Shown in pieces: positions 11,751 to 34,966 of a DNA stretch of 64,000 bases (within the stretch, counting starts at the first letter, position 1; the number at the start of each line of letters is the position of its first letter). Position numbers and translations under genes: made by a program. The notes under the pieces are model-generated. The model saw only the letters and a program-made list of their open reading frames with translations. It had not been told where the DNA came from and ran no database searches. The stretch is from an uncultured Acidobacteriota bacterium (GTDB lineage: Bacteria > Acidobacteriota > Vicinamibacteria > Marinacidobacterales > SMYC01), in contig CAWFHP010000009.1 in NCBI GenBank assembly GCA_963815675.1, forward strand, positions 248,235 through 312,234, written 5' to 3'.

Positions 11751-11858
11751 AGTGAAGGCCGCCCCTTTCGCAACTATCTGATATCGAGTAGATTGTCCAT
11801 CTGAATCGACTGGCCCGCTTCTTGCCTCACCGTAGTCCCTTCATAGGAGCCGGGCCAG

Positions 11859-12923
11859 GTGACGATCAGGCATCGCGCGAAACCTGCCCTGCTGGCTCTG
11901 TCGTTTGTGGTTCTCACACACCCGCTCGACCTCGCCCAAACGCCGGGTGCCGGTAGCATCGACGGACGCGTTGTGGACGCGACAGGTGCTGCACTCTCCC
12001 AGGCGCGGGTCTCCGTGCTCCACCGCGGCACCGGCCTCGAGCGAAGTCTCGTCACGACGTCCAGCGGGCTCGTTCGGTTTCCTCTTCTTCCGGTGGGGCG
12101 CTATGCGCTGGAAGTATCGCTCGAGGGGGTTCGAGACGCTCCAAAGAAAGGACGTCCTCGTCTCCGTTCCCAGCGAAACCCCAACCGAAACCTGGGTCCT
12201 CCCTTCCGACTACGACGCAAACGGTCGAGGCCTGTACGACGCGCAGGACCGTTTGGACCCTCGCTACGGCGACTTCCAGGTGGAGGAATCGACGGCAAGA
12301 CGGCGCTACACGGCGCTCATCCTCTCGGCGAGACGGCGCTTCAAAAACCGCGTTCAGTTCGAGGCCTACTACACGCTCTCCGAGAACAGGACGGACGACG
12401 ACAACGAGAGAAGCGCGGGCGGGCCTCAAACAGTCAGCCGGAAAACCTCGACGCCGATTGGGCCTTCAGCTTCCTCGACGTTCGCGATCGACTCGTGGCC
12501 AACGGAGTCTTCGAGCTTCCCGGTGGCTTCAGTCTGGGAGCTCTTCTCGCCACGAACACGGGTCGCCCGTTCAACACCCTCATCGGCTCCGACGACAATG
12601 GGGATGGGAACGCCAACGACCGGGCCGTCGTGGATGATTCCAACCGCCAGAAGGTCCTCGACATGGGACTGGATCTCCCGGAGGGCCTCCAGCCGCGCAA
12701 CTCCGGCCGGCAGCCGGGCGTCTTCAACCTCGATCTGCGCGTCGCCAAGAACGTCGAGTTCGGAAAGAAGGGACGAATGGAGCTCATGGTCGAAGTCTTC
12801 AACGTCTTCAACAACGCCAACCGCTTCACCACGAGCAACGTGATCGGCTCGCCCAGCTTCGGGCGCCTTGACTCGGTGGGCACCCCTCGGCAGGTCCAGC
12901 TCGGGGCGCGCTATCGCTGGTAG
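11859..12923 (+). pseudogene. degraded TonB-dependent receptor-like gene (CarbopepD_reg N-terminus + beta-barrel C-terminus, internally deleted and frameshifted)
   Basis: N-terminus has a signal plus a carboxypeptidase-regulatory-like domain (GSIDGRVVDATGAALSQARVSVLHRGTGLERSLVTTSSGLVRFPLLPVGRYALEVSLEG). The C-terminus has barrel strands ending ...QVQLGARYRW. The middle switches to frame of ORF 11905..12843 (RYTALILSARRRFKNRVQFEAYYTLSEN). It is only about 350 codons, versus about 1000 for intact members. Confidence 0.5.
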
Positions 12924-15068
12924 TCCTGAGGAAGCTCGAGCATCCAGAGGTCGCCGGTCATCTCCGCGTACTCGTAGACAATCTGATCCCCCAGGGGTGA
13001 CCACGTGGGATAGCGGACGAAGGTATTCAAGGTCGTGTAATCGGTGAGCTGACACTCGCTCTTGTCGGTCCGCGAGACCCACCGCAGGTTCCAGACGTCG
13101 TCTCGCAGCGACGCGAACGCAATCTTGTCGCCGTCCGGCGACCAGGCTCCGGTAAAGTTCAGCCCCGGGGCGCTCGTCAATTGAACCGGGGTGCCCCCTT
13201 CCGCCGGGATGACGCCAATCTCAACGTCAAGGCCACGCTTCACCTCGAACGCGATGAGCTCGCCGTCGGGGGACCAATTGGGATACGCCATCATCTCGTC
13301 GTCGAAGGTGAGCTGGCGCTCCTCGCCGTCTTTAGTCGTGTTTGCCAGCCAGACATTGTCGATTCCTCCGTTCTTCCTCGATTGGAACGCGACTCTGGTC
13401 AGGTCGGGGGAAAGCGCTGCCCATACCCAGTGGGAAGCGAAGGAATGCAGGAACGCGACCTCGCGGGAGTCGACGTCGATGGTCCAGTAGCCTCCCCGCC
13501 CCTCGCGACGGGAGAAGAAAATCACGCGTTGGCCGTCCGAGCTCCACCGAGAGACCCGATCGGGGCCCGGGTGGGTCGTGAGTCGCCGCGCGTTCGCGCC
13601 GTCGTCATCGATGAGCCACACGTCGTGAGCCGCCCCGGTGACGGCTCGGTCGAAGGCGATCGTGCGGCCATCGGGAGAGAACTGCGGGAAGTAGTTTCGC
13701 GCGTTCGTGTAGTGCGTCAGCTGCCGGGGCGGCTCGGTAGGCTCGTGCGTCTCCCTCGAAAGGGAGACCGAGGCGAAATTGCTCGACATGACCACGCTCG
13801 CATAGACGAGTGTTTTTCCATCGCCGGAGAAGCTGGGATAGCGTATCGCCGGCGATGGGGAAACTCTCTTTATCACCAGTCGTGGCTCGGAGCCGTCGAC
13901 CGTCAGGCTCACAAGGCTCACGTTCCACAGCCCGTAGAAGCCGTCTCCGTCGCCCGTGAAGTACAGCTCGTCTCCCGATGGAGCGTAGACGACATCGTAG
14001 AGTCTTTGCGCAAACCCTGACTCCCGGGAGAAACCGGCGTTCGGCACTTGCTCGAGCTCACCCTCGAGCGAGACGGTCCAGAGCTTCGAGAGGTTGTGGT
14101 CGGAGGCCACAAAGGCGATGCGGTCCCCCTTGGGGGACCAGGCTGGGTCGCCGTGACCGCCGGGTGGGTTGTCGACCGTGGTGAGCGGGTGCGGCGGTCC
14201 GCCGTCGAGGGGACAAATCCAGAGGGTGGAAGGCGGAAGGGTTATGGAGTTGCTCCCGAGATCTTCCAATGGCTCGGACTGGAACGCGATCCGCTGGCCG
14301 TCCGGGGACCAGGTCGGTCGACTTCCGAAGTCGGTCAGCTTTCGAGGAGACCCGCCAAAGGCCGGCACCGTCCAGATTCCACCGCGATCCTTCGAGTAGT
14401 AGGCGATGACGTCTCCCGCGGGAGACCAGGCTGGCTGGAAGTTCTGAGGATCCGTCCGAGGTGAGCTGTATCTCGCCTCCGGCGGGGGTGAGCTGTTGCA
14501 CGTAAATCTCGAAGCTCCCGCTGCGGTTCGAGCTGTAGGCCACGGCGTTTCCGTCCGGAGACATCGAGGGGAAGATATCCAAAGCGGTCGAGCTCGTCAG
14601 TTGAACGGGCCGGTCGGTCCAGGACAGGTCCTCGCTCCGGGGACGAGAGAACATCAGGACGACCGCGAGTCCGACGAGGATGACTCCGGCCGCGACCGCG
14701 ACGAGGAGCGGCTTCTTGCCACGAGCTGGATGCGCCTCCTCCTCGACGACCCGAACGCCGGCAACGAAGCGGTAGCCCCGCCGCGGAACGGTCTCGATGT
14801 ACTTCGACCCGTGGGCGTCGTCGCCCAATGCTTTGCGCAGCTGCGCCACCACCCGTGTCAGCGCGTTCTCGCTGACGAACGTCTCGCCCCACACCGCATC
14901 CAGGATTTCCTGCTTGTCTAGGAGCTCTCCCCGGTGCTGGATGAAATAGACGAGAAGATCGAAGGCTTTGGGCTCGAGGAGCACCGGTGCACCGGCTCGC
15001 AGGACGAGCTCGGACGCTCCATCGACCCGAACGTCACCGAACTCGTACGTGGCTGGCAGGCTTGGCAT
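12911..15068 (-). CDS. CadC-like transcriptional regulator: OmpR/PhoB-type winged-helix DNA-binding domain + TM helix + TolB-like (PD40/WD40) beta-propeller; apparent frameshift near 14400
   Basis: ORF 14058..15068 has a wHTH (LLEPKAFDLLVYFIQHRGELLDKQEILDAVWG...RRGYRF), then TM LLVAVAAGVILVGLAVVLMF. ORF 12911..14368 continues with repeated ...SPDG..IAF... propeller blades. Confidence 0.7.
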
Positions 15069-16959: not shown

Positions 16960-17252
16960 GCGCGAGACGGGCGTGCACCTGATCGTCGGTCCGTTCTTCG
17001 TGGCGCACGAGCTGCGCGAGTCGTTCGGCGACCGGCTGCACGCGATGGTCGCGCGCCACCGTCGCAGCGAGGAGCGCGGCAAGAGGCGCGCCTGCGCCGC
17101 CGCGCCGAGCGCTACGAGATTCCCACCGTCGCCGCCTCCGAGGTGCTGTACCACAGGCGCGAGCGGCGCGACCTGCAGGACGTTCGACCCGATCCGTCGG
17201 GGGTGCTGTTCGAGCGCTTCCTCTCGCGCGAGCGCTCGGCGTCGACGGCGTG
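16960..17252 (+). pseudogene. fragment of an error-prone DNA polymerase DnaE2 (PHP-domain region), frameshifted remnant
   Basis: + strand frames read ...GDRLHAMVARHRRSEERGKRRA... then ARLRRRAERYEIPTVAASEVLYHRRERRDLQDV..., matching the DnaE2 N-terminal region (compare ...LARRHGLPLVATGDVHMHVRSRKPLQDV). About 95 codons only, with no start and no downstream polymerase core. Confidence 0.35.
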
Positions 17253-18369: not shown

Positions 18370-20321
18370 TCAGCGCTTCAGTGCCGACGTAAGGCTTCGA
18401 GCGAGGGCCTCCAGGAGGAAGGGCTTCTTCAGAAAGGCCGCCTCCACCCGATCCACGGGCCGCCTCTGCGGTTGGTGAGCATCGTAGCCGCTCACGAGGA
18501 TCACGCTCGGCGGGTGAGGCAGGGTGCGGATGAGAGCGAGCGTGTCCTCACCGCTCAGGCCCGGCATCGTCATGTCCAGGAGCACGACATCGAATGCCTC
18601 GGGCTCCGACGACAGCACGGCGAGCGCCTCGTCGCCGTTGGTCGCGGTCGAGGCCGCGAGCCCCAGCTGTTCGATCATCTCGACCGTGACCCGGCGGACA
18701 GTCTCCTCGTCGTCCACCACCAACACTCTGGTGCCGGGAGCGAACGACTCCACCGATTCCCCCGGTCCGGTCCCCGCCGCCGCCGGTTGGGGTTTCACCT
18801 CGACCGCCGGAACGGCGAGGAGCAGTACCCGGACCCGGGTTCCCCGGCCCGGAGCGCTCTCCACTTCGATTCGAGCCTCCGTGCCCGCGAATGATGCCCT
18901 GGACCGCCGCGAGTCCGAGGCCGTGCCCCGAAAACTTCGTGGTGAAGAACGGATCGAAAATACGCGCGCGGGTCTCATCGTCCATGCCGCAGCCGTCGTC
19001 GGTGACTTCGATGGCGGCATACGCAGCCGGCCCGGCGCTTGCCTCCCGTACCGACTCGACTTGCCGGGTCCGGAGGGAGACCGTGCCGCCACGCTCGTCG
19101 ATGGCGTCCGAAGCGTTGGTGATCAGATTCATCACGACCTGCTGGATCTGGGCGGCGTCGCCTTTGGCGGTAGGGCGTCCCGGGTCCAGGTCGATGTCGA
19201 GCGAGACGTTCTTCGAAATGCTGATTCGCAGGAGTCCGGCCATCTCTTCGATGAGCTCGTTCAGGGGAATCGGCTCGACGACGAACCGACCGCGTCCGGA
19301 ATAGGCCAGCAGCTGGTTCGTCAGATTCCGACGCCCGCTGAGCGCTCAGCCGCAGTCGTTCGAGAAAGGTGCGCAGCCGGCCCTCCTCCGGCACCTCGTG
19401 GAGTGCGAGCTCCGCATTGCCGAGGATGCCGACGAGGAGATTGTTGAAGTCGTGCGCCACGCCGCCGGCGAGAAGCGCGAGCCCCTCCATCTTCTGCGCC
19501 TCGCGGAGGCGCTCCTCGAGCTGACGATGCGTCGTGATCTCCATCGCGGTGCCGATGGTCCCCACGATGGTGCCGTCGGCGTCCCGGAGCGGATCGAGAG
19601 AGCAGGTGAACCGGTATCTCCCGAAGCTCGTCTCGTAACGCTGCGGTTCTCCCTCAAGCGCACGTCTGTGGCGAGGAAGGTCTTCGTGATCTCCCAGGTA
19701 CTCGGAGACGGTCAACCCCACCACTTGATCGGGAGCGAGCCCGAGAATCGCGAGACCCTTTCCCTGGGACGAAGTGAAACGAAGCTCACGGTCCGTCGAC
19801 CAGACGATGGCGGGCACCTGTTCGTAGACGACGCGCAACTGGGAGTTGCTCCGGGCGAGCTCGTCCCGGCTCTCGCGAAGGCGCTGCTCGGCGTCCCGAT
19901 GAGAGGTGACGTCGGTCGCGAAGACGATGAAGCTCGACCCGCGCCCGTACGGGTCGCCGATGCCGTGGACGTGCAACGACGCCGCAATAACGCTCCCGTC
20001 CCTGCGGTGTAGACGCACATCGGCTCCGGACGCCGCGCCCCCGGCAGCCCGGGCAAAGAGCTCCTGGCAGTCGCCGGGATCGACGATGACGTCCCGGTTC
20101 GCGTTGAGGGTGAGCATCTCCTCGGCCGAGTCGTAACCGAGCAGCCCGACGAAAGCTCGGTTCACGAACAGGTAGCACCCGTCGATGGTGATCAGGAACA
20201 CGCCGAAAGGTGCGGCGTCGAAGAGGATCTTCAAGTCGGGGGCGCTGAAACCGGCTTCGAGCGACCCCGTCGGCCCGAGAGACGGAGTCGGCGAGACCGC
20301 GGGATGGTCCGCGGAACCCAT
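18370..20321 (-). CDS. hybrid sensor histidine kinase (PAS-PAS-HisKA-HATPase_c-REC); two apparent frameshifts (~19300, ~18600)
   Basis: ORF 18975..20321 has two PAS domains and H-box GGVAHDFNNLL. ORF 18548..19243 has HATPase_c (DAAQIQQVVMNLITNASDA...GHGLGLAAVQGI). ORF 18370..19092 has the HATPase end plus a receiver (VLVVDDEETVRRV...VLLDMTMPGLSG). Confidence 0.75.
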
Positions 20322-24809: not shown

Positions 24810-27800
24810 ATGGCAAAGCGAACTCCGGCACGCGCGCAAAGGAAGCCCCGCAGAACACCCCCACTGAGCAAGGCGTCCACCGGCATCCACGGACTGGACG
24901 AGCTGACCGGTGGAGGTTTGCCCCGGGGACGGCCGACCCTCCTGTGCGGTAGCGCCGGCTGCGGCAAGACGCTCATGGCCATGGAGTTCCTGGTGCGGGG
25001 CGCCCTGGACTCCGGCGAACCGGGCGTCTTTATGGCCTTCGAGGAGAGCGACGAGGAGCTGACCACCAACTTCGCTTCACTCGGTCACGATCTGTCAGCG
25101 TTGGTGGCCAACAAGAAGCTGTCGATCGACTTCGTTCGGGTCGAGCGCAGTGAGATGGCTCAGACGGGCGAGTGCGACCTGGAAGGGCTCTTCATCCGCC
25201 TGGGACACGCCATCGACAGCATCGGCGCGAAGCGCGTGGTGCTCGACACCATTGAGGTGCTGTTCTCCGGGCTGCCCGACGCGGCCCTCCTGCGCAGCGA
25301 GCTGCAGCGCCTCTTTCGCTGGCTGAAGGCCCGGGGGATCACGGCGATCATCACCGCCGAACGGGGCGAGACCGCCCTCACCCGCCATGGGCTGGAGGAG
25401 TACGTCGCCGACTGCGTGATCCTCCTCGACCACCGCGTGGAGGGCCAGATGGCCACGCGCCGGCTGCGCATCGTCAAGTACAGAGGTTCCACCCACAGCG
25501 CCAACGAGTATCCGTTCCTGATCGACGAGGGCGGCATCTCGATCCTGCCCCTCACATCGGCGAGGCTGGAGCAGAAAGCGGGGGTCGCGCGCGTGTCCTC
25601 GGGCGTTCCGCGCCTGGACGCGATGATGGGGGGCAAGGGCTACTATCGGGGCAGCACCGTCCTGGTCTCCGGCACCGCGGGCTCGGGCAAGACGAGCCTG
25701 GCCGCGCATTTTGCCGCCGGAGCCGCCGAGCGGGGCGAGCGCTGCCTGTGGTTCTCCTTCTACGAATCGTCGAGCCAGATCATCCGCAACATGCGCTCCA
25801 TCGGCATCAACCTGGCGCCGGCGGTGCGGCGCGGGACGCTGCGTATCGAAGCGGAGCGGTCGACGATCTGGGGCCTGGAGATGCAGCTCGTCACCATCCA
25901 CAAGTTGGTGAACGAGTTCAAGCCGAGCATCGTCATCATCGACCCGGCCTCGGCTTTCGCCACCCTCGGGAGCGAGGCGGACGTCAAGGCGATGATGACG
26001 CGGCTGATCGACTTCTTCAAAGTGCAGGGCGTCACCGCGTTGATCACGAGCCTCACCGGTGGTGACGCGACTTTGGAGAGCACCGAGGTGGCCATTTCGG
26101 CGTTGATGGACACCTGGCTGTTGCTGCGGGACGTCCACAACGGCGCGGAGCGCAACCGGGTGCTGCACCTGGTGAAGTCGCGAGGGATGAAGCACTCGAA
26201 CCAGGTCCGCGAGTTCCTGTTGACGGACCACGGGGTGGAGCTGCGGGACGTGTATGCCGGGCCTTCGGGCGTGCTGCTCACCGGGAGCGCGCGCGGGGCG
26301 CTGGAGGCGCAGGAGAAGGCCCAGACCCTGCTGCACGGGCAGGAGACGCAGAGCAAGAGGCACAACCTGGAGCGCAAGCGCCAAGCCATGGAGGCGCAGA
26401 TTGCCGTGCTGCGGGCGAAGTACGAGGTCGAGGAAGCGGAGGCGGCGAGGACCATCGGTCAGGACCAGACACGTGCCGGGGTGTTGGCCGGTGACCGGGT
26501 GCGCATGGCCCGCGAGCGGCAGTCCGACAAGAGGGCGGCGCCGGAAAGGCCGGCGAAGCGCCGAGGGGATCAGCATGAAGCCCAAGTCGACAAGCCGGCT
26601 CGGCCAAGGCAAAGAGGCACGAAGCCCGCGAAGGGGCCCGAGTACATCCTGCGCCTGTACGTGGCGGGCATGACACCGCGCTCCACCCGCGCCATCGCCA
26701 ACATCAAGGAGATCTGCGAGGGGCGTCTGAAGGGGCGCTACGACCTCCAGGTGATCGACCTCTACCAGCACCCGGAGCTTGCCGCGGAGGAGCAGATCGT
26801 CGCCCTGCCCACGCTGATCAGAAAGCTCCCGCAGCCCCTGCGCCGGATGGTAGGCGACCTCTCCGATCTCGAAAAGGTTCTGATCGGGCTGGAACTGCGG
26901 GCCGGCCTTGACGGGAGCCGTGGCTTGATGAAGAAACGTCGTTCCGGGGCTGCGCTCGACACGGAAATGGACGTCCTCCGCACCCGGCTGGCCACCGCCG
27001 AAGAGGACCTGCGCGCCATCCGCAGTGGCGACGTGGACGCTGTGCTGGTCACGGGCGAGCGCGGCGACCAGGTCTTCACTCTGACGGGAGCCGACCGGGC
27101 GTATCGTCAACTCGTCGAGACGATGGGCGAGGGCGCGGCGACGCTCTCCGCGGACGGCGTCATCCTCTATTGCAACGACTGCCTGGCCATGATGCTGGGA
27201 CGACCGCTCGACCAGGTGATCGGCAGTGCACTGCGCAGATGGCTACCGCCCGCGGACCACCAGGCCCTTGCCGAGCTGCTCCTCAGAGCGCGCACGGAGA
27301 CCGCCCGCACGGAGATCGCCCTGGTGACCGCCGGGGGCACCGCGATGCCCGTGTACCTATCGGCTTCCCACCTGAGTCCAGACGGAGCCGAGACGGTGAC
27401 CTGCCTCGTGCTGACCGACCTGACAGCACAGCGACATCTCGAGAAGGTCGCCGCGGCGGAGCAGTTGGCCCGCTCCATCCTCGAACAGGCCGCCGAGGCC
27501 ATCGTGGTATGCGACATCGAGGGCCGCGTCACACGCGCGAGCCTGGTGGCCGAACAGCTCTGCGACGGCGGTCTGCTACGGAGGCCTTTTGCCGAAGCCT
27601 TTCCCCTGCAGACCCCGGACGCCCAAGCCTTCAATCTCATCTCCGTTCTGAAGGGGGAGACGTTGCGCGACGTGGATGTCGCCTTGCGTCAGCAGGGACG
27701 GGAGCTTGCCCTCATGGTGAGCGCGCGTCCGCTCGTCAGGGACCAGGAGATCTTCGGCTGCGTCATCACCTGGACCGACATCACCGCGCGCAAGCGGGTG

Positions 27801-29721
27801 GAGGACGACCTTCGCAAGAAGGATTTCCTGCTATCGGAAGCGCAGCGCCTCGGCTCGGTCGGAAGTTGGTACTGGGACCTCGTTGGTCCCATGACGTGGT
27901 CGGATGAGACGTATCGCGTCTACGGTGTGGAGTCGGACACCTTCGAGCCGACCGTGGAGAACCTGGTCGGCCTGATCCACCCCGAGGACCGGCCGACGAT
28001 GCAGGCCTGGATCGGTGCCAGTATCGGGGGCGAGCAGCCCTCCGAGCTGGCGTTTCGGATCAATCCGCCGGACGGCACCACCCGCCATGTGCTGGGTCGC
28101 GGCGAGGTGGCCCTCGACGCCGCGGGCCAGCCGGCCTATATGGCCGGCACCGTGCAGGACATCACCGAGCGAATGCAGGCGGAGCAGACCCTCCGCCTGC
28201 AAGGGCGCCGCGCTGAATGCCGCCGCCAACGCCATGGTCATCACCGACCGCAACGGTGTCGTCGAGTGGAGCAACACGGCGTTCTCCAAGCTGAGCGGCT
28301 ACAGCGCCGAGGAGAGCCTGGGGATGCGCCTTTGGGGCGCGGCACAGACGGATGCCGATGCCGCGACGGTCGCGTCGGACGAGGAGATGTGGGCGGCCAT
28401 CCTCGCCGGAAGCGTCTGGCGCGGCGAGGTGACGAGTCTGCGCAGAGACGGCAGTCGGTACCTCCAGGAACGGACCGTCACACCCGTGAAAGACGAGCGC
28501 GGAGTGATCGCGCACTTCATCGCGATCAAGGAGGACCTGACGGATCGCCGCTTCCTGGAGAGCCAACTCCAGCAATCCCAGAAGATGGAGACGGTGGGGC
28601 AGCTCGCCGGCGGGGTCGCCCACGACTTCAACAACCTCCTCACGGTCATCAACGCGACCGCCGACCTCGCGGCCGAGGGTCTGCCGGAGGGCGATCCCCT
28701 ACGTGAGGAGTTCCGTGAGATCCGACTCGCCGGCGAACGGGCGGCAACGCTGACGCGTCAGCTCCTGGCCTTCAGCCGCAAGCAGGTGCTCCAGCCCGCG
28801 GTGCTGAATGTGAACACGGTGGTGGTGAACATGGAGCGGATGCTGGGCCGCCTGATCGGCGAGAACATCCTGCTGGAAATCAGGCCGACTCCGGATCTCG
28901 GGAACGTCAAGGTGGATGCCGGGCAGCTCGAGCAGGTCGTGATGAATCTGGTGGTGAATGCCCGCGACGCCATGCCCGATGGGGGCACGTTGATCGTGAC
29001 GACGCGCAACGTCACGCTCGACGCCGCCTACGCCGCCGGCAACCCTACCAGCACGCCGGGCCCCCATGTGTTGTTGGCGATCTCCGACACCGGCTCGGGC
29101 ATGGACGAGGCGACCCGACGGAAAATCTTCGAACCGTTCTTCACCACCAAGGACGTCGGCAAGGGCTCGGGATTGGGCCTGTCCACCGTGTTCGGAATCG
29201 TCAGACAGAGCGGTGGCAGCATCGAGGTCTACAGCGAAGTGGGCAGGGGTACGGTGTTCAAGGTGTACCTACCTCTGGTGGACGCCCCGGAAGCGGTCTC
29301 GTCCGCCGGCGCAGCGAGCCCAGCTCACGGCACGGAGACCATCCTCGTCGTCGAGGACGATGCGGCGGTGCGCCGGGTGGCCACGCGCGTCCTGCGCGCA
29401 GCGGGCTACACGGTATTGACCGCCAACAACGGCATGGCTGCGCTGGCCTTGCTCGCGTCACAGGGTGGCGCCGTGCACCTGGTGCTCACGGACATGGTGA
29501 TGCCGAAGATGGGCGGCCTGGAGCTGGCGGCCCGGCTCAAGGAGCTTCGGCCGGACCAGAAGGTCTTGTTCACGTCCGGTTATACCGATGACACCATGCG
29601 GCTCGGTGGGCGACCCGACATAGCCGCCCAGTTCATCGGCAAGCCCTACACCGGGGTGGAGCTGACGCGCAGGGTCCGGGACGTGCTCGACCTCGAGGTC
29701 GCGGGGCAACCAATGCCGTAG
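24810..29721 (+). CDS. KaiC-KaiB-PAS(x3-4)-HisKA-HATPase_c-REC fusion protein (about 1,640 aa); single apparent frameshift near 28200
   Basis: ORF 24810..28706 has KaiC-type duplicated RecA/P-loop domains (GIHGLDELTGGGLPRGRPTLLCGSAGCGKT and GVPRLDAMMGGKGYYRGSTVLVSGTAGSGKT, catalytic FEES, DxxG). A coiled-coil/basic linker follows. Then a KaiB-like segment EYILRLYVAGMTPRSTRAIANIKEICEGRLKGRYDLQVIDLYQHPELAAEEQIVALPTLIRKLPQPLRRMVGDLSDLEKVLIGLEL. Then PAS domains. The frame of ORF 28015..29721 continues with a PAS domain, H-box QLAGGVAHDFNNLLTVI, HATPase_c (GSGLGLSTVFGIV) and a receiver (ILVVEDDAAVRRV...LVLTDMVMPKMGG). Confidence 0.85.
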
Positions 29722-33032: not shown

Positions 33033-34966
33033 ATGGCGAAGCCATCACTCCAGTCGCTGCCAGGCGACCGACCGGACTCATCCGGGTGGCAGTATCGCGC
33101 CGCCTTCGAGAAGATTCCCGTCGCAACGTTTCTCTTCGACGCCGCCAACCGTTTCTGTCTCGATGCGAATCAGGAGGCCGGGAACCTCACCGGCTACACG
33201 CGCCGCGAGCTCCTCGACCTTCGCCTCGAAGACCTGCACCCGAGATTGGAACGCCCTCGGGCGGTCGAGCATTTCAACAAGTGGCTCACGTCCCCGGGCT
33301 TTACCTATGACGACCTGCCGCTCGAGACCAAGGAGCAGGGACGACTCCCCGTCTCGGTCCAGGGCTCCACCCTCGGTTTCGACGAGGGCAAGGCGGTGCT
33401 GGTGCATTGTCGCGACCTGAGCGAGGAGCGGCTCCTCCAGCGGGAAGTCCTGTTCCAGAGCCACAAGCTCACCGCGTTGAACTCCCTTTCATCGGCGATC
33501 AGCAAATCCCTCGACTTGAGCGAGATTCTCTCCGATTCTCTGAACGTGATCATGGATGCGAGCGGGAGCGTCTACGGCGAGATGCTCCTCTATCAGGAAG
33601 AAACCCGCACGTTCCAGCTCGCCGTATCCCAGGGGGACATACGCGAGAGCCCGAAGATCCGCTCCTCCGGCTCGAAGACTGCGATCTCGCGGCGCGGGTG
33701 CTCAAGAGTGGAGAGCCGACGCTCCTCGAGTCGAGCGAGCGCGAGCCAAGGCTCCACGAGATTCTGCGGGACCGCGAAGAGGTGGGGGCGGTAGCGGGGA
33801 TTCCGCTCCGGAGCAAGAACCGCGTTCTGGGAGTGATGCATCTCGGCATCGCCTCGAAGCAGCTCTTTCCCACCTTCGACTTCGACCTGTTCACGTCCAT
33901 CGGAAACCAGATCGGGATGGCGTGCGAGAACGCGCTCCTGTTCCAGCGCACCGCGCACCAGACGAAACAAATCAAGGTACTGAACAACATCGCGCGGGTC
34001 ATCAGCAGCAGCCTCCAGATCGAGGAGGTCTTCGACGCTTTCGCTCACGAGATGGAGAAGCTCATCTCGTTCGATCGTCTCTCGGTGGCTTTTCTCGACG
34101 AGTCGGGGAGCTATCTCAGAATCTTCGCCTCGGGGTCGCGAACCGACTCCGGCTGGGGAATGGAATCACTCATACCCCTGGTGGGGACGGGCCCGGGATG
34201 GGTCGTGCTGAACGAAAAGCACTTCATCCACCCCGATACCAAGAGTCAACCCCGTTTCATCGAGGATCGGTTCCTCCACGAGGACGGGATCCGCTCCTAC
34301 ATCCTCCTCCCGCTCGAGTCGCGCGGGCGCGTCGTCGGGACCTTCGGCCTGGGGGCGGCGAAAGACCACGGATTCTCGGAAAAGGATCTTCCGCTCCTCA
34401 CCCAGCTCTCGAAACAGATCTCGGTCGCCATCGAGAACGTCAAGCTCTACCGGAAAACGATCGAGACTTCGATCCTCGACGACGTGAGCTCGCTCTTCAA
34501 CTCGCGCTACTTCCATCAGTCGCTCGAGCGCGAGCTGAAGCTTACCGCCCGGCACAAGTCGCGGCTGAGCCTGCTCTTCATCGACCTCGATCACTTCAAG
34601 ATCCTGAACGACACCCACGGACACCTCCGGGGAAGCAAGGTTTTGAGGGAAGTGGGGTTCCTGCTGCGGGCCGCCATCCGCGAGACCGACATCGCCGCTC
34701 GCTACGGCGGCGACGAGTTCGTCACCATTCTGCCCGACACCGATTCCCCCCAGGCGCAGCGGCTGGGAGAGAGGATGAGACAGATCATCCTGCGGAATAC
34801 CTTCTTGAAAGAAGAGGGTATCAACGCCCGGCTGGGGGCGAGCATCGGCGTCGCCACCTTCCCCACCGAGGCCCCGACGAAAGAAGAGCTCATCCACCTC
34901 GCGGACGAGCGCATGTACGAGGACAAGGAAAAGAACCGGGGAAAACCCATTCCCCGCGACGCCTGA
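33033..34966 (+). CDS. PAS-GAF-GAF-GGDEF diguanylate cyclase; apparent frameshift near 33660
   Basis: ORF 33033..33794 has a PAS domain. ORF 33407..34966 has two GAF domains and GGDEF (LSLLFIDLDHFKILNDTHGHLRGSKVLREVG...RYGGDEFVTIL) with intact GGDEF and RxxD-like context. Confidence 0.8.

Follow-up and report, generated by a model that had tools for sequence, protein, structure and literature searches.

An apparent KaiC-KaiB-PAS kinase fusion in an uncultured Acidobacteriota bacterium: probably an ordinary kaiC-kaiB-kinase operon

The DNA studied here is a stretch of 64,000 nucleotides from an uncultured Acidobacteriota bacterium (GenBank assembly GCA_963815675.1, contig CAWFHP010000009.1, positions 248,235 to 312,234), referred to below as the window, and the element in question is a KaiB domain encoded at 26634-26904 of its plus strand. 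An earlier note had described this domain as a KaiB covalently tethered to KaiC and standing in front of a kinase module, in the position where SasA carries its KaiB-like domain. Our analysis points, with a probability of about three in four, to a free kaiB of an ordinary kaiC-kaiB-PAS/histidine kinase/receiver (PAS/HK/REC) operon, and to the fusion being an artefact of the sequence.

Genes and features of the kai locus

As sequenced, the KaiB segment, whose translation over 26634-26904 (+) is the 90 residues quoted in the earlier note, lies in a single stop-free frame that runs from 24810 to 28706 (+) and encodes 1298 amino acids. This open reading frame (ORF) comprises, in order, the CI and CII domains of KaiC, a tail of about 75 amino acids, a basic linker of about 35 amino acids, KaiB, a 12-amino-acid linker and three PAS domains, and it ends with about 165 residues matching no family. 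A Pfam search located a fourth PAS domain and the HisKA, HATPase_c and REC domains in another frame (ORF 28015-29721), the frame changing at about 28206. As sequenced, KaiB and the catalytic module of the kinase are not one chain. Frame calls were made with a codon log-odds model, a frame plot of the GC content at third codon positions (GC3) being too noisy at 64% GC. An opposite-strand ORF at 25095-27110 is read as a high-GC shadow ORF because its codon-usage score is much lower than that of the plus frame (79 versus 388). No kaiA-like gene stands beside the operon in the ORF list of the window. The features of the locus, as we reconstruct them, are the following.

24810-26578 (+): kaiC as inferred, 589 amino acids, CI and CII domains and C-terminal extension (Pfam, NCBIfam and PDB matches)
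26307-26534 (+): coiled-coil-type C-terminal extension of KaiC, about residues 500-575 (aligns with the tail of R. sphaeroides KaiC, KaiC_RS, to residue 558 of 568)
26575-26911 (+): kaiB as inferred, 111 amino acids, ATG at 26575 and TGA at 26909-26911 (a free kaiB of 111-116 amino acids stands there in the related loci L078, L001, L002 and L049)
26634-26904 (+): KaiB domain (Pfam PF07689 match, PDB KaiB matches and placement in a neighbour-joining tree)
26913-26930 (+): retained intergenic signals, namely a GGGAG ribosome-binding site at 26913-26917 and the kinase ATG at 26928 (same string in L001, L002 and L078)
26928-29721 (+): hybrid histidine kinase gene, PAS x4-HisKA-HATPase_c-REC, 930 amino acids after repair (Pfam domains over two frames, with a one-nucleotide surplus at about 28206)

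KaiC matched the Pfam KaiC/ATPase family at E 5e-104 and the NCBIfam KaiC family with 681.8 bits, and its top PDB match was the KaiC of R. sphaeroides (8DBA, E 2e-175). Its predicted stop is the TGA at 26576-26578, within an ATGA overlap with kaiB, and is out of frame in the window; after repair of one nucleotide KaiC ends in AKRPRGSA and the stop codon, as in L078 and the related protein P0006. The ATG of kaiB sits 2 nucleotides out of frame with the KaiB domain, and its TGA is not in the frame of the 1298-amino-acid ORF. The predicted KaiB carries a basic N-terminal tail of 20 amino acids. The phosphosite pair of KaiC is Ser-Ala (AISALMD, at about 26085-26105) in the window and in close relatives, and Ser-Ser in the more distant P0130.

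Identity of the KaiB domain

The segment matched profile positions 1-81 of the 82 of Pfam PF07689, with 95.1 bits and E 2e-27 (the gathering cut-off being 27 bits), and BLASTP gave an ungapped alignment of 85 residues with S. elongatus KaiB (58% identity, about 100 bits), so that the full-length alignment with free KaiB claimed in the earlier note was borne out. Among solved structures the top match was R. sphaeroides KaiB (8FWJ, E 3e-28), and the cyanobacterial KaiB structures followed at E 1e-26 to 1e-24. The SasA N-domain 6X61 gave a phmmer E of 0.01, in the same range as ordinary thioredoxins, and the N-domain of S. elongatus SasA showed 33% identity over 43 amino acids (BLASTP, 23 bits).

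The C-terminal motif DLSxxEKVLIGL of KaiB is present in the segment. The positions involved in fold switching have been defined as Tyr8, Pro63, Pro70, Pro72, Gly89 and Asp91 (PMC11665890); in the alignment, which includes the ALPTL stretch, equivalents of the first five were found, and Asp91 is replaced by Glu. The fold-switching C-terminal half of KaiB appears conserved. With both NCBIfam KaiB equivalogs the segment scored below the curated cut-offs (103.8 versus 110 for NF006798 and 102.2 versus 145.3 for TIGR02654), and it is best classed as a non-cyanobacterial KaiB.

A neighbour-joining tree was built from 208 KaiB sequences of related loci together with reference sequences. The SasA N-domains diverge first in this tree, outside all KaiBs, the cyanobacterial KaiBs come next, and the window KaiB falls among free kaiB genes that its closest relatives carry in single copy, at a distance of 0.76 from SasA-N versus 0.45 from cyanobacterial KaiB. 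Judged by tree, phmmer and BLASTP, the segment is a genuine KaiB domain, neither of the SasA-N type nor a generic thioredoxin, in agreement with its earlier description as KaiB-grade.

Related loci

The survey covered 126 loci from many phyla, 46 from GTDB species genomes and 80 from JGI metagenomes. Separate ORFs encode KaiC, KaiB and the PAS kinase in all of them except L050 and L110. L050 comes from a heavily frameshifted long-read metagenome-assembled genome (MAG), and L110 is a deletion derivative; the latter was considered as a tethered KaiB and rejected, because its deletion leaves KaiC CI connected to no more than the C-terminal half of a KaiB. At 718-1488 of this contig (JGI Ga0075421_100035015), the first 190 or so residues of KaiC (CI) are joined in frame, LTRQGL being followed directly by DQIVAIPTLVRRLPPPIRK, and an intact second kaiB comes after.

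The contigs of the closest KaiCs carry a kaiC of 588-592 amino acids, whose TGA overlaps the kaiB ATG as ATGA, a kaiB of 111-116 amino acids and a PAS-HK-REC gene. A 16-nucleotide spacer with GGGAG precedes the kinase in L001 and L002, and in L049 the stop of kaiB and the start of the kinase gene overlap. The kinases of the relatives have their own ATG, begin with PAS and contain no KaiB-like domain. This, and the fact that the catalytic half of the window kinase is out of frame with KaiB, leaves the analogy with SasA unsupported.

The closest relative, L078, is a JGI contig of 2432 bp with 96.3% nucleotide identity to the window over 2438 nucleotides. It encodes a KaiC ending in DKRPRGSA and the stop, a KaiB of 111 amino acids ending in ELRVGP and the stop, and a kinase starting with MKKRRSG. 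Compared with L078, the only frame-breaking differences of the window are five insertions or deletions (indels) of one nucleotide.

A protein search with the junction region returned no clean fusion across the junctions; it retrieved separate KaiCs (584-592 amino acids, up to 89% identical), small KaiBs and PAS kinases. The window-specific 41-mer at the start of KaiB had 0 exact matches in JGI metagenome contigs, and the protein of the window and its junction peptide are absent from a collection of 5.8 billion proteins and from the GTDB species representatives. The KaiC-KaiB 'fusions' present in a library of 1.84 billion proteins are short fragments, and the junctions of those read in detail are visibly out of frame. 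P0130, P0135, P0137, P0148 and P0246 were rejected as natural fusions for their out-of-frame junctions. P0002 was rejected as a clean fusion, its kaiC being frameshifted and a TAAGGAG stop and ribosome-binding site lying one base out of frame before the kaiB ATG.

Some further observations were made on these loci. One kaiB copy is present in 45 loci and two tandem copies in 81. The kaiC-proximal copies (81/81) form one clade with R. sphaeroides KaiB, and the kinase-proximal copies constitute the other group; the clade of the window retains only the kinase-proximal type. The L002 kinase has an extra PAS domain (13366-13713, 369 nt), at the place corresponding to about 28165 of the window, which is missing from the window, L001 and L050; the number of PAS domains varies in this close clade, at the same linker as the kinase frameshift of the window. 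L036 and L041, two kaiC-kaiB-kaiB-PAS copies from the same MAG (MFD09286.bin.2.82), are 97.7% identical over 3.66 kb and have differing flanks. The window operon shares no flanks with any relative. The kai operon may be duplicated or mobile.

The five one-base differences

The five positions at which the window departs from its relatives by one base are the following.

26555-26571 (+): one-nucleotide deficit at about 26563, which takes the kaiC stop out of frame (alignments to L001, L002, L003, L049, L050 and L078)
26586-26598 (+): one-nucleotide surplus at about 26594, in the N-terminal tail of KaiB (window GTCGACAAGCCGG, L078 GTCGACAA-CCGG)
26611-26624 (+): second one-nucleotide surplus, at about 26619, in the N-terminal tail of KaiB (window AAAGAGGCACGAAG, L078 AAAGAGGG-CGAAG)
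26899-26912 (+): one-nucleotide deficit at about 26906, just 5' of the kaiB stop (window GGGCCGG-CCTTGAC, L078 GGGTCGGGCCTTGAT)
28197-28212 (+): one-nucleotide surplus at about 28206, inside the kinase gene (window CTGCAAGGGCGCCGCG, L078 CTGCAAGGG-GCCGCG, L049 CAA-GGCGCC)

At the first site the window reads GAAGCGCC-GAGG and the relatives have one base more (AAGCGCCCG in four of them, AAGAGCCCG in L002 and AAGCGTCCG in L049), with CC in the window versus CCC in L078 at position 26563. At position 26906 the window has GG where L078 has GGG, and the ORF thereby reads through the kaiB TGA. Across the kinase site the relatives read LRLQ(S/G)AALNAAAN. The same five differences are seen against L001, L002, L003, L049 and L050, and at each site the window resembles a blend of the alleles of the relatives. 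The kaiB ATG lies 55 nt from a conserved anchor in the window versus 53, 53, 53 and 56 nt in relatives (all 2 mod 3), and the KaiB domain lies 80 nt from this ATG in the window versus 78 nt in 4/4 relatives compared. The three indels at the kaiC/kaiB boundary sum to a restored frame.

The window preserves each boundary signal (ATGA overlap, kaiB TGA, GGGAG, kinase ATG), and five one-base edits yield a KaiC of 589, a KaiB of 111 and a PAS x4-HisKA-HATPase-REC kinase of 930 amino acids, collinear with the relatives. The codon differences between the window and L078 amount to 19 synonymous and 8 non-synonymous in KaiC, and to 10 synonymous and 14 non-synonymous in the PAS region; the changes in KaiC and KaiB are mostly synonymous. 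The covalent KaiC-KaiB tether proposed earlier is not supported by this comparison: the genes are separate in the relatives, down to L078, continuity hangs on four one-nucleotide indels, and the boundary signals are intact.

Frameshifts elsewhere in the window

The codon-usage model revealed many same-strand frame switches without a nearby stop codon in the window, and family searches showed that such switches split single proteins between frames. In nuoL, profile positions 3-488 are in one frame and 503-597 in another, and a one-base repair gives a single stretch scoring 699.5 bits. A hybrid kinase is split over three frames by two shifts, HATPase_c being cut at 85 of 111, and repair results in PAS-PAS-HisKA-HATPase-REC. 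Further genes with one-nucleotide shifts are those for an ADH, an Asp protease (twice), a VWA protein, TPR and PD40 regulators, a DUF4340 protein, a PAS-GGDEF protein and an outer-membrane protein. Of 12 frameshifts, 11 (at about 2753, 11240, 11560, 14433, 18870, 19326, 21603, 33665, 44670, 48981 and 58350) coincide with a GATC that is read as GAATC, GATTC, GGATC or GTATC or is one base longer or shorter; the twelfth is AAAA read as AAA. About 3% of the approximately 400 GATC sites of the window are affected, and restoring GATC regains conserved motifs (HGGSIEVES, LLEIGKP) and full-length proteins. These shifts would fit systematic base-calling errors at GATC sites carrying Dam-type methylation, which suggests that the organism methylates GATC.

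Two of the genes concerned lie near the kai operon, namely a PAS-PAS-HisKA-HATPase-REC hybrid kinase at 18403-20279 (-) and a PAS-GGDEF gene at 33090-34963 (+), both broken at GATC sites. An outer-membrane beta-barrel gene at 11847-12920 (+) has a CarboxypepD_reg-like start, matches the barrel profile over about 582-838 only and contains the AAAA to AAA shift (about 12418); the gene is possibly a truncated remnant. Two more candidate switches without a nearby stop were noted, at about 5260 (-), which looks non-GATC, and at about 17084 (+), with a GATTC at 17120.

Residual errors in nanopore consensus sequences are typically of two kinds, errors tied to one methylation-type motif and homopolymer indels. 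In a published account they are mostly frame-shifting homopolymer indels (PMC8011154). Each of the five kai indels can be read as a change in homopolymer length. The sister 'contig_N' assemblies of the same ENA project (L003, L050) have even more frameshifts in the kai operon.

The GATC error class was examined as the cause of the kai indels and rejected, only 26563 lying near a GATC (6-7 nt) and all 33 of the 33 GATC sites of the operon looking intact. A second motif shared by the five kai sites was also sought (CCGG, GCCGGC, GGGCC, GGGCG), and none was convincing, such motifs being common at this GC content.

Origin of the apparent fusion

We suggest that the 1298-amino-acid ORF arises from one-base length errors at about 26563, 26594, 26619, 26906 and 28206, and that their most likely source is the consensus step of a long-read metagenome assembly. 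KaiB would then be a free protein of 111 amino acids, translated from its own ATG at 26575, and the kinase would be translated from its own GGGAG and ATG at 26913 and 26928. The clustering of the errors in hypervariable linkers may be explained by the merging of reads from near-identical strains or from paralogous operon copies; mixed-read errors of this kind are possible because a single MAG can hold two such copies, as L036 and L041 demonstrate. The indel at 28206 is informative whichever way it is taken. As an error, it would show that one-base errors outside the GATC class arise in the linkers of this operon, which would suffice to explain the junction indels; as a real change, it would truncate the kinase and leave no KaiC-KaiB-kinase chain. 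Localised errors where co-assembled strains or paralogues differ in length are a priori much more likely than a real fusion under selection, because the latter requires that, within 3.7% divergence, four indels became fixed and two gene fusions took place at the same time, and is seen nowhere else.

Several observations weigh against this explanation. The five kai indels do not belong to the GATC class that dominates the window, and outside the kai operon there are only 1-3 non-GATC frameshifts in 59 kb; uniformly spread errors therefore do not explain the kai cluster. All five indels fall within linkers that are hypervariable and total about 200 nt (approximately 4% of the operon), and the domain-coding sequence, roughly 4.7 kb, has none. 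In addition, if the sequence of the window is correct, the KaiB domain lacks its own start codon in the right frame, and KaiB could be made only as a fusion.

It is unlikely, in our judgement, that the indels are real and mark a recently damaged or remodelled operon, encoding KaiC-KaiB-PAS1-3 plus about 165 out-of-frame residues, with the catalytic half cut off and lacking an obvious start. The long ORF would then be a by-product of high GC, with its few out-of-frame stops, and no evolved design. The rarity of non-GATC frameshifts elsewhere in the window, and the fact that the kai indels are not obviously of the same error class, speak for such damage, as do the frame change at 28206, which parts HisKA-HATPase-REC from the ORF, and the PAS region, which is less constrained than KaiC in the comparison with L078. 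However, decay should strike domain-coding DNA in proportion to its length, the differences in KaiC and KaiB are mostly synonymous, and five fixed frame-breaking indels are very many at 3.7% divergence. Plain pseudogene decay was ranked low, in that the indels avoid all domain-coding sequence.

A functional megaprotein, with KaiB tethered between KaiC and the PAS kinase and 28206 as the only sequencing error, has still less probability. Its tether would increase the concentration of KaiB locally and set KaiB on the N-terminal side of a kinase, as in SasA. Such a protein could account for the unbroken frame from KaiC via KaiB into PAS, for the three indels at the first junction that jointly restore the frame exactly, for a KaiB that alone has no in-frame start, and for indels that spare all domain bodies, as expected of domains selected within a fusion. 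Yet neither the closest relative nor any other locus has a fusion, and comparable 'fusions' in databases are frameshift artefacts. Within 3.7% divergence, one junction would have to have acquired three indels and the other junction one, the stop, start and ribosome-site signals remaining untouched, and the fifth indel (28206) would have to be taken as just the sort of error that is denied for the other four. The geometry is also awkward. In R. sphaeroides the C-terminal tails of KaiC form a coiled coil of about 115 Å between two hexamers, while the binding site of KaiB is the distal CI ring (PMC10076222). The linker of about 35 residues would have to return along the full length of the KaiC hexamer with a 900-amino-acid kinase attached. 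The most improbable version is that the four junction indels are real and 28206 is the only error, giving a chain of about 1640 amino acids (KaiC-KaiB-PAS x4-HisKA-HATPase-REC) as a very recent fusion of the whole operon.

Comparison with known systems

Read as separate genes, the locus is most likely a KaiA-less KaiBC operon of a known kind, the Rhodobacter type (kaiC2 group), of which it is a new sequence member; hourglass systems of this kind occur in Rhodobacter sphaeroides and Rhodopseudomonas palustris. The KaiBC hourglass of R. sphaeroides (8DBA, 8FWI, 8FWJ; PMC10076222) is the nearest characterized system: KaiC_RS is the closest to the window KaiC, including its C-terminal coiled-coil extension of about 50 amino acids, KaiB_RS is the best PDB match of the window KaiB, and the order kaiC-kaiB-PAS/HK without an adjacent kaiA is common to both. 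There are differences as well. The window KaiB belongs to the kinase-proximal paralogue group, while KaiB_RS is in the clade of the 81 kaiC-proximal copies; the phosphosites are Ser-Ala (AISALMD) in the window, Ser413-Ser414 in KaiC_RS and Ser-Thr in cyanobacteria; and the window as given runs three genes in one frame.

The extension of KaiC_RS is a 12-helix coiled coil that joins two hexamers and confers KaiA-independent autophosphorylation, and R. sphaeroides KaiB binds the CI ring in its switched fold and speeds dephosphorylation, resulting in an hourglass timer (PMC10076222). By analogy, the window KaiC would autophosphorylate without KaiA by means of its C-terminal coiled-coil tail, and free KaiB would bind the CI ring, fold-switched, in the post-hydrolysis, ADP-bound state of CI and with little dependence on the phosphorylation state. 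Its binding would promote dephosphorylation of KaiC, and the PAS hybrid kinase would couple the state of the system to signalling, as sensor or output. The earlier proposal that a tethered KaiB acts at effective molar concentration falls with the tether; it also presumed the kinetics of cyanobacterial KaiABC, whereas the KaiC is of the KaiA-independent R. sphaeroides type.

The kaiC-kaiB-PAS/HK layout is known from both R. palustris and R. sphaeroides (PMC4794148). In Rhodopseudomonas palustris the operon has one promoter and the same three-gene layout (PMC4794148), the comparison being one of layout; its genes are separate, unlike those of the window as given. Of the origin proposed earlier for the fusion, from a kaiC-kaiB operon and a downstream SasA-like kinase, the descent from a kaiC-kaiB operon with a kinase gene behind it is supported, but the kinase is not SasA-like and the fusion itself is not supported. 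The SasA N-domain (1T4Y, 6X61) shares a thioredoxin-like ancestry with KaiB, and KaiB precedes kinase-related PAS domains in the sequence of the window as it stands; the kinase of the window operon differs from SasA in being a PAS x4 hybrid with a receiver domain. Compared with cyanobacterial KaiB (S. elongatus 4KSO, T. elongatus 2QKE and the fold-switched 5JYT), to which it aligns ungapped, the window KaiB has neither the acidic C-terminal tail nor an equivalent of Tyr94, and it has no kaiA context.

Conclusions

If the tether were true, it would be a natural experiment on the stoichiometry and on-rate of KaiB, in a clock and its output combined in one chain. Most likely, the 'tether' is not a biological feature. 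Single-base errors in long-read assemblies of high GC content rarely introduce stop codons, so that neighbouring genes of an operon can merge into apparent 'fusion proteins', and the same KaiC-KaiB fusion artefact is visible in public protein collections. The locus itself would be one more member of the widespread kaiC-kaiB-PAS/HK operons of soil bacteria.

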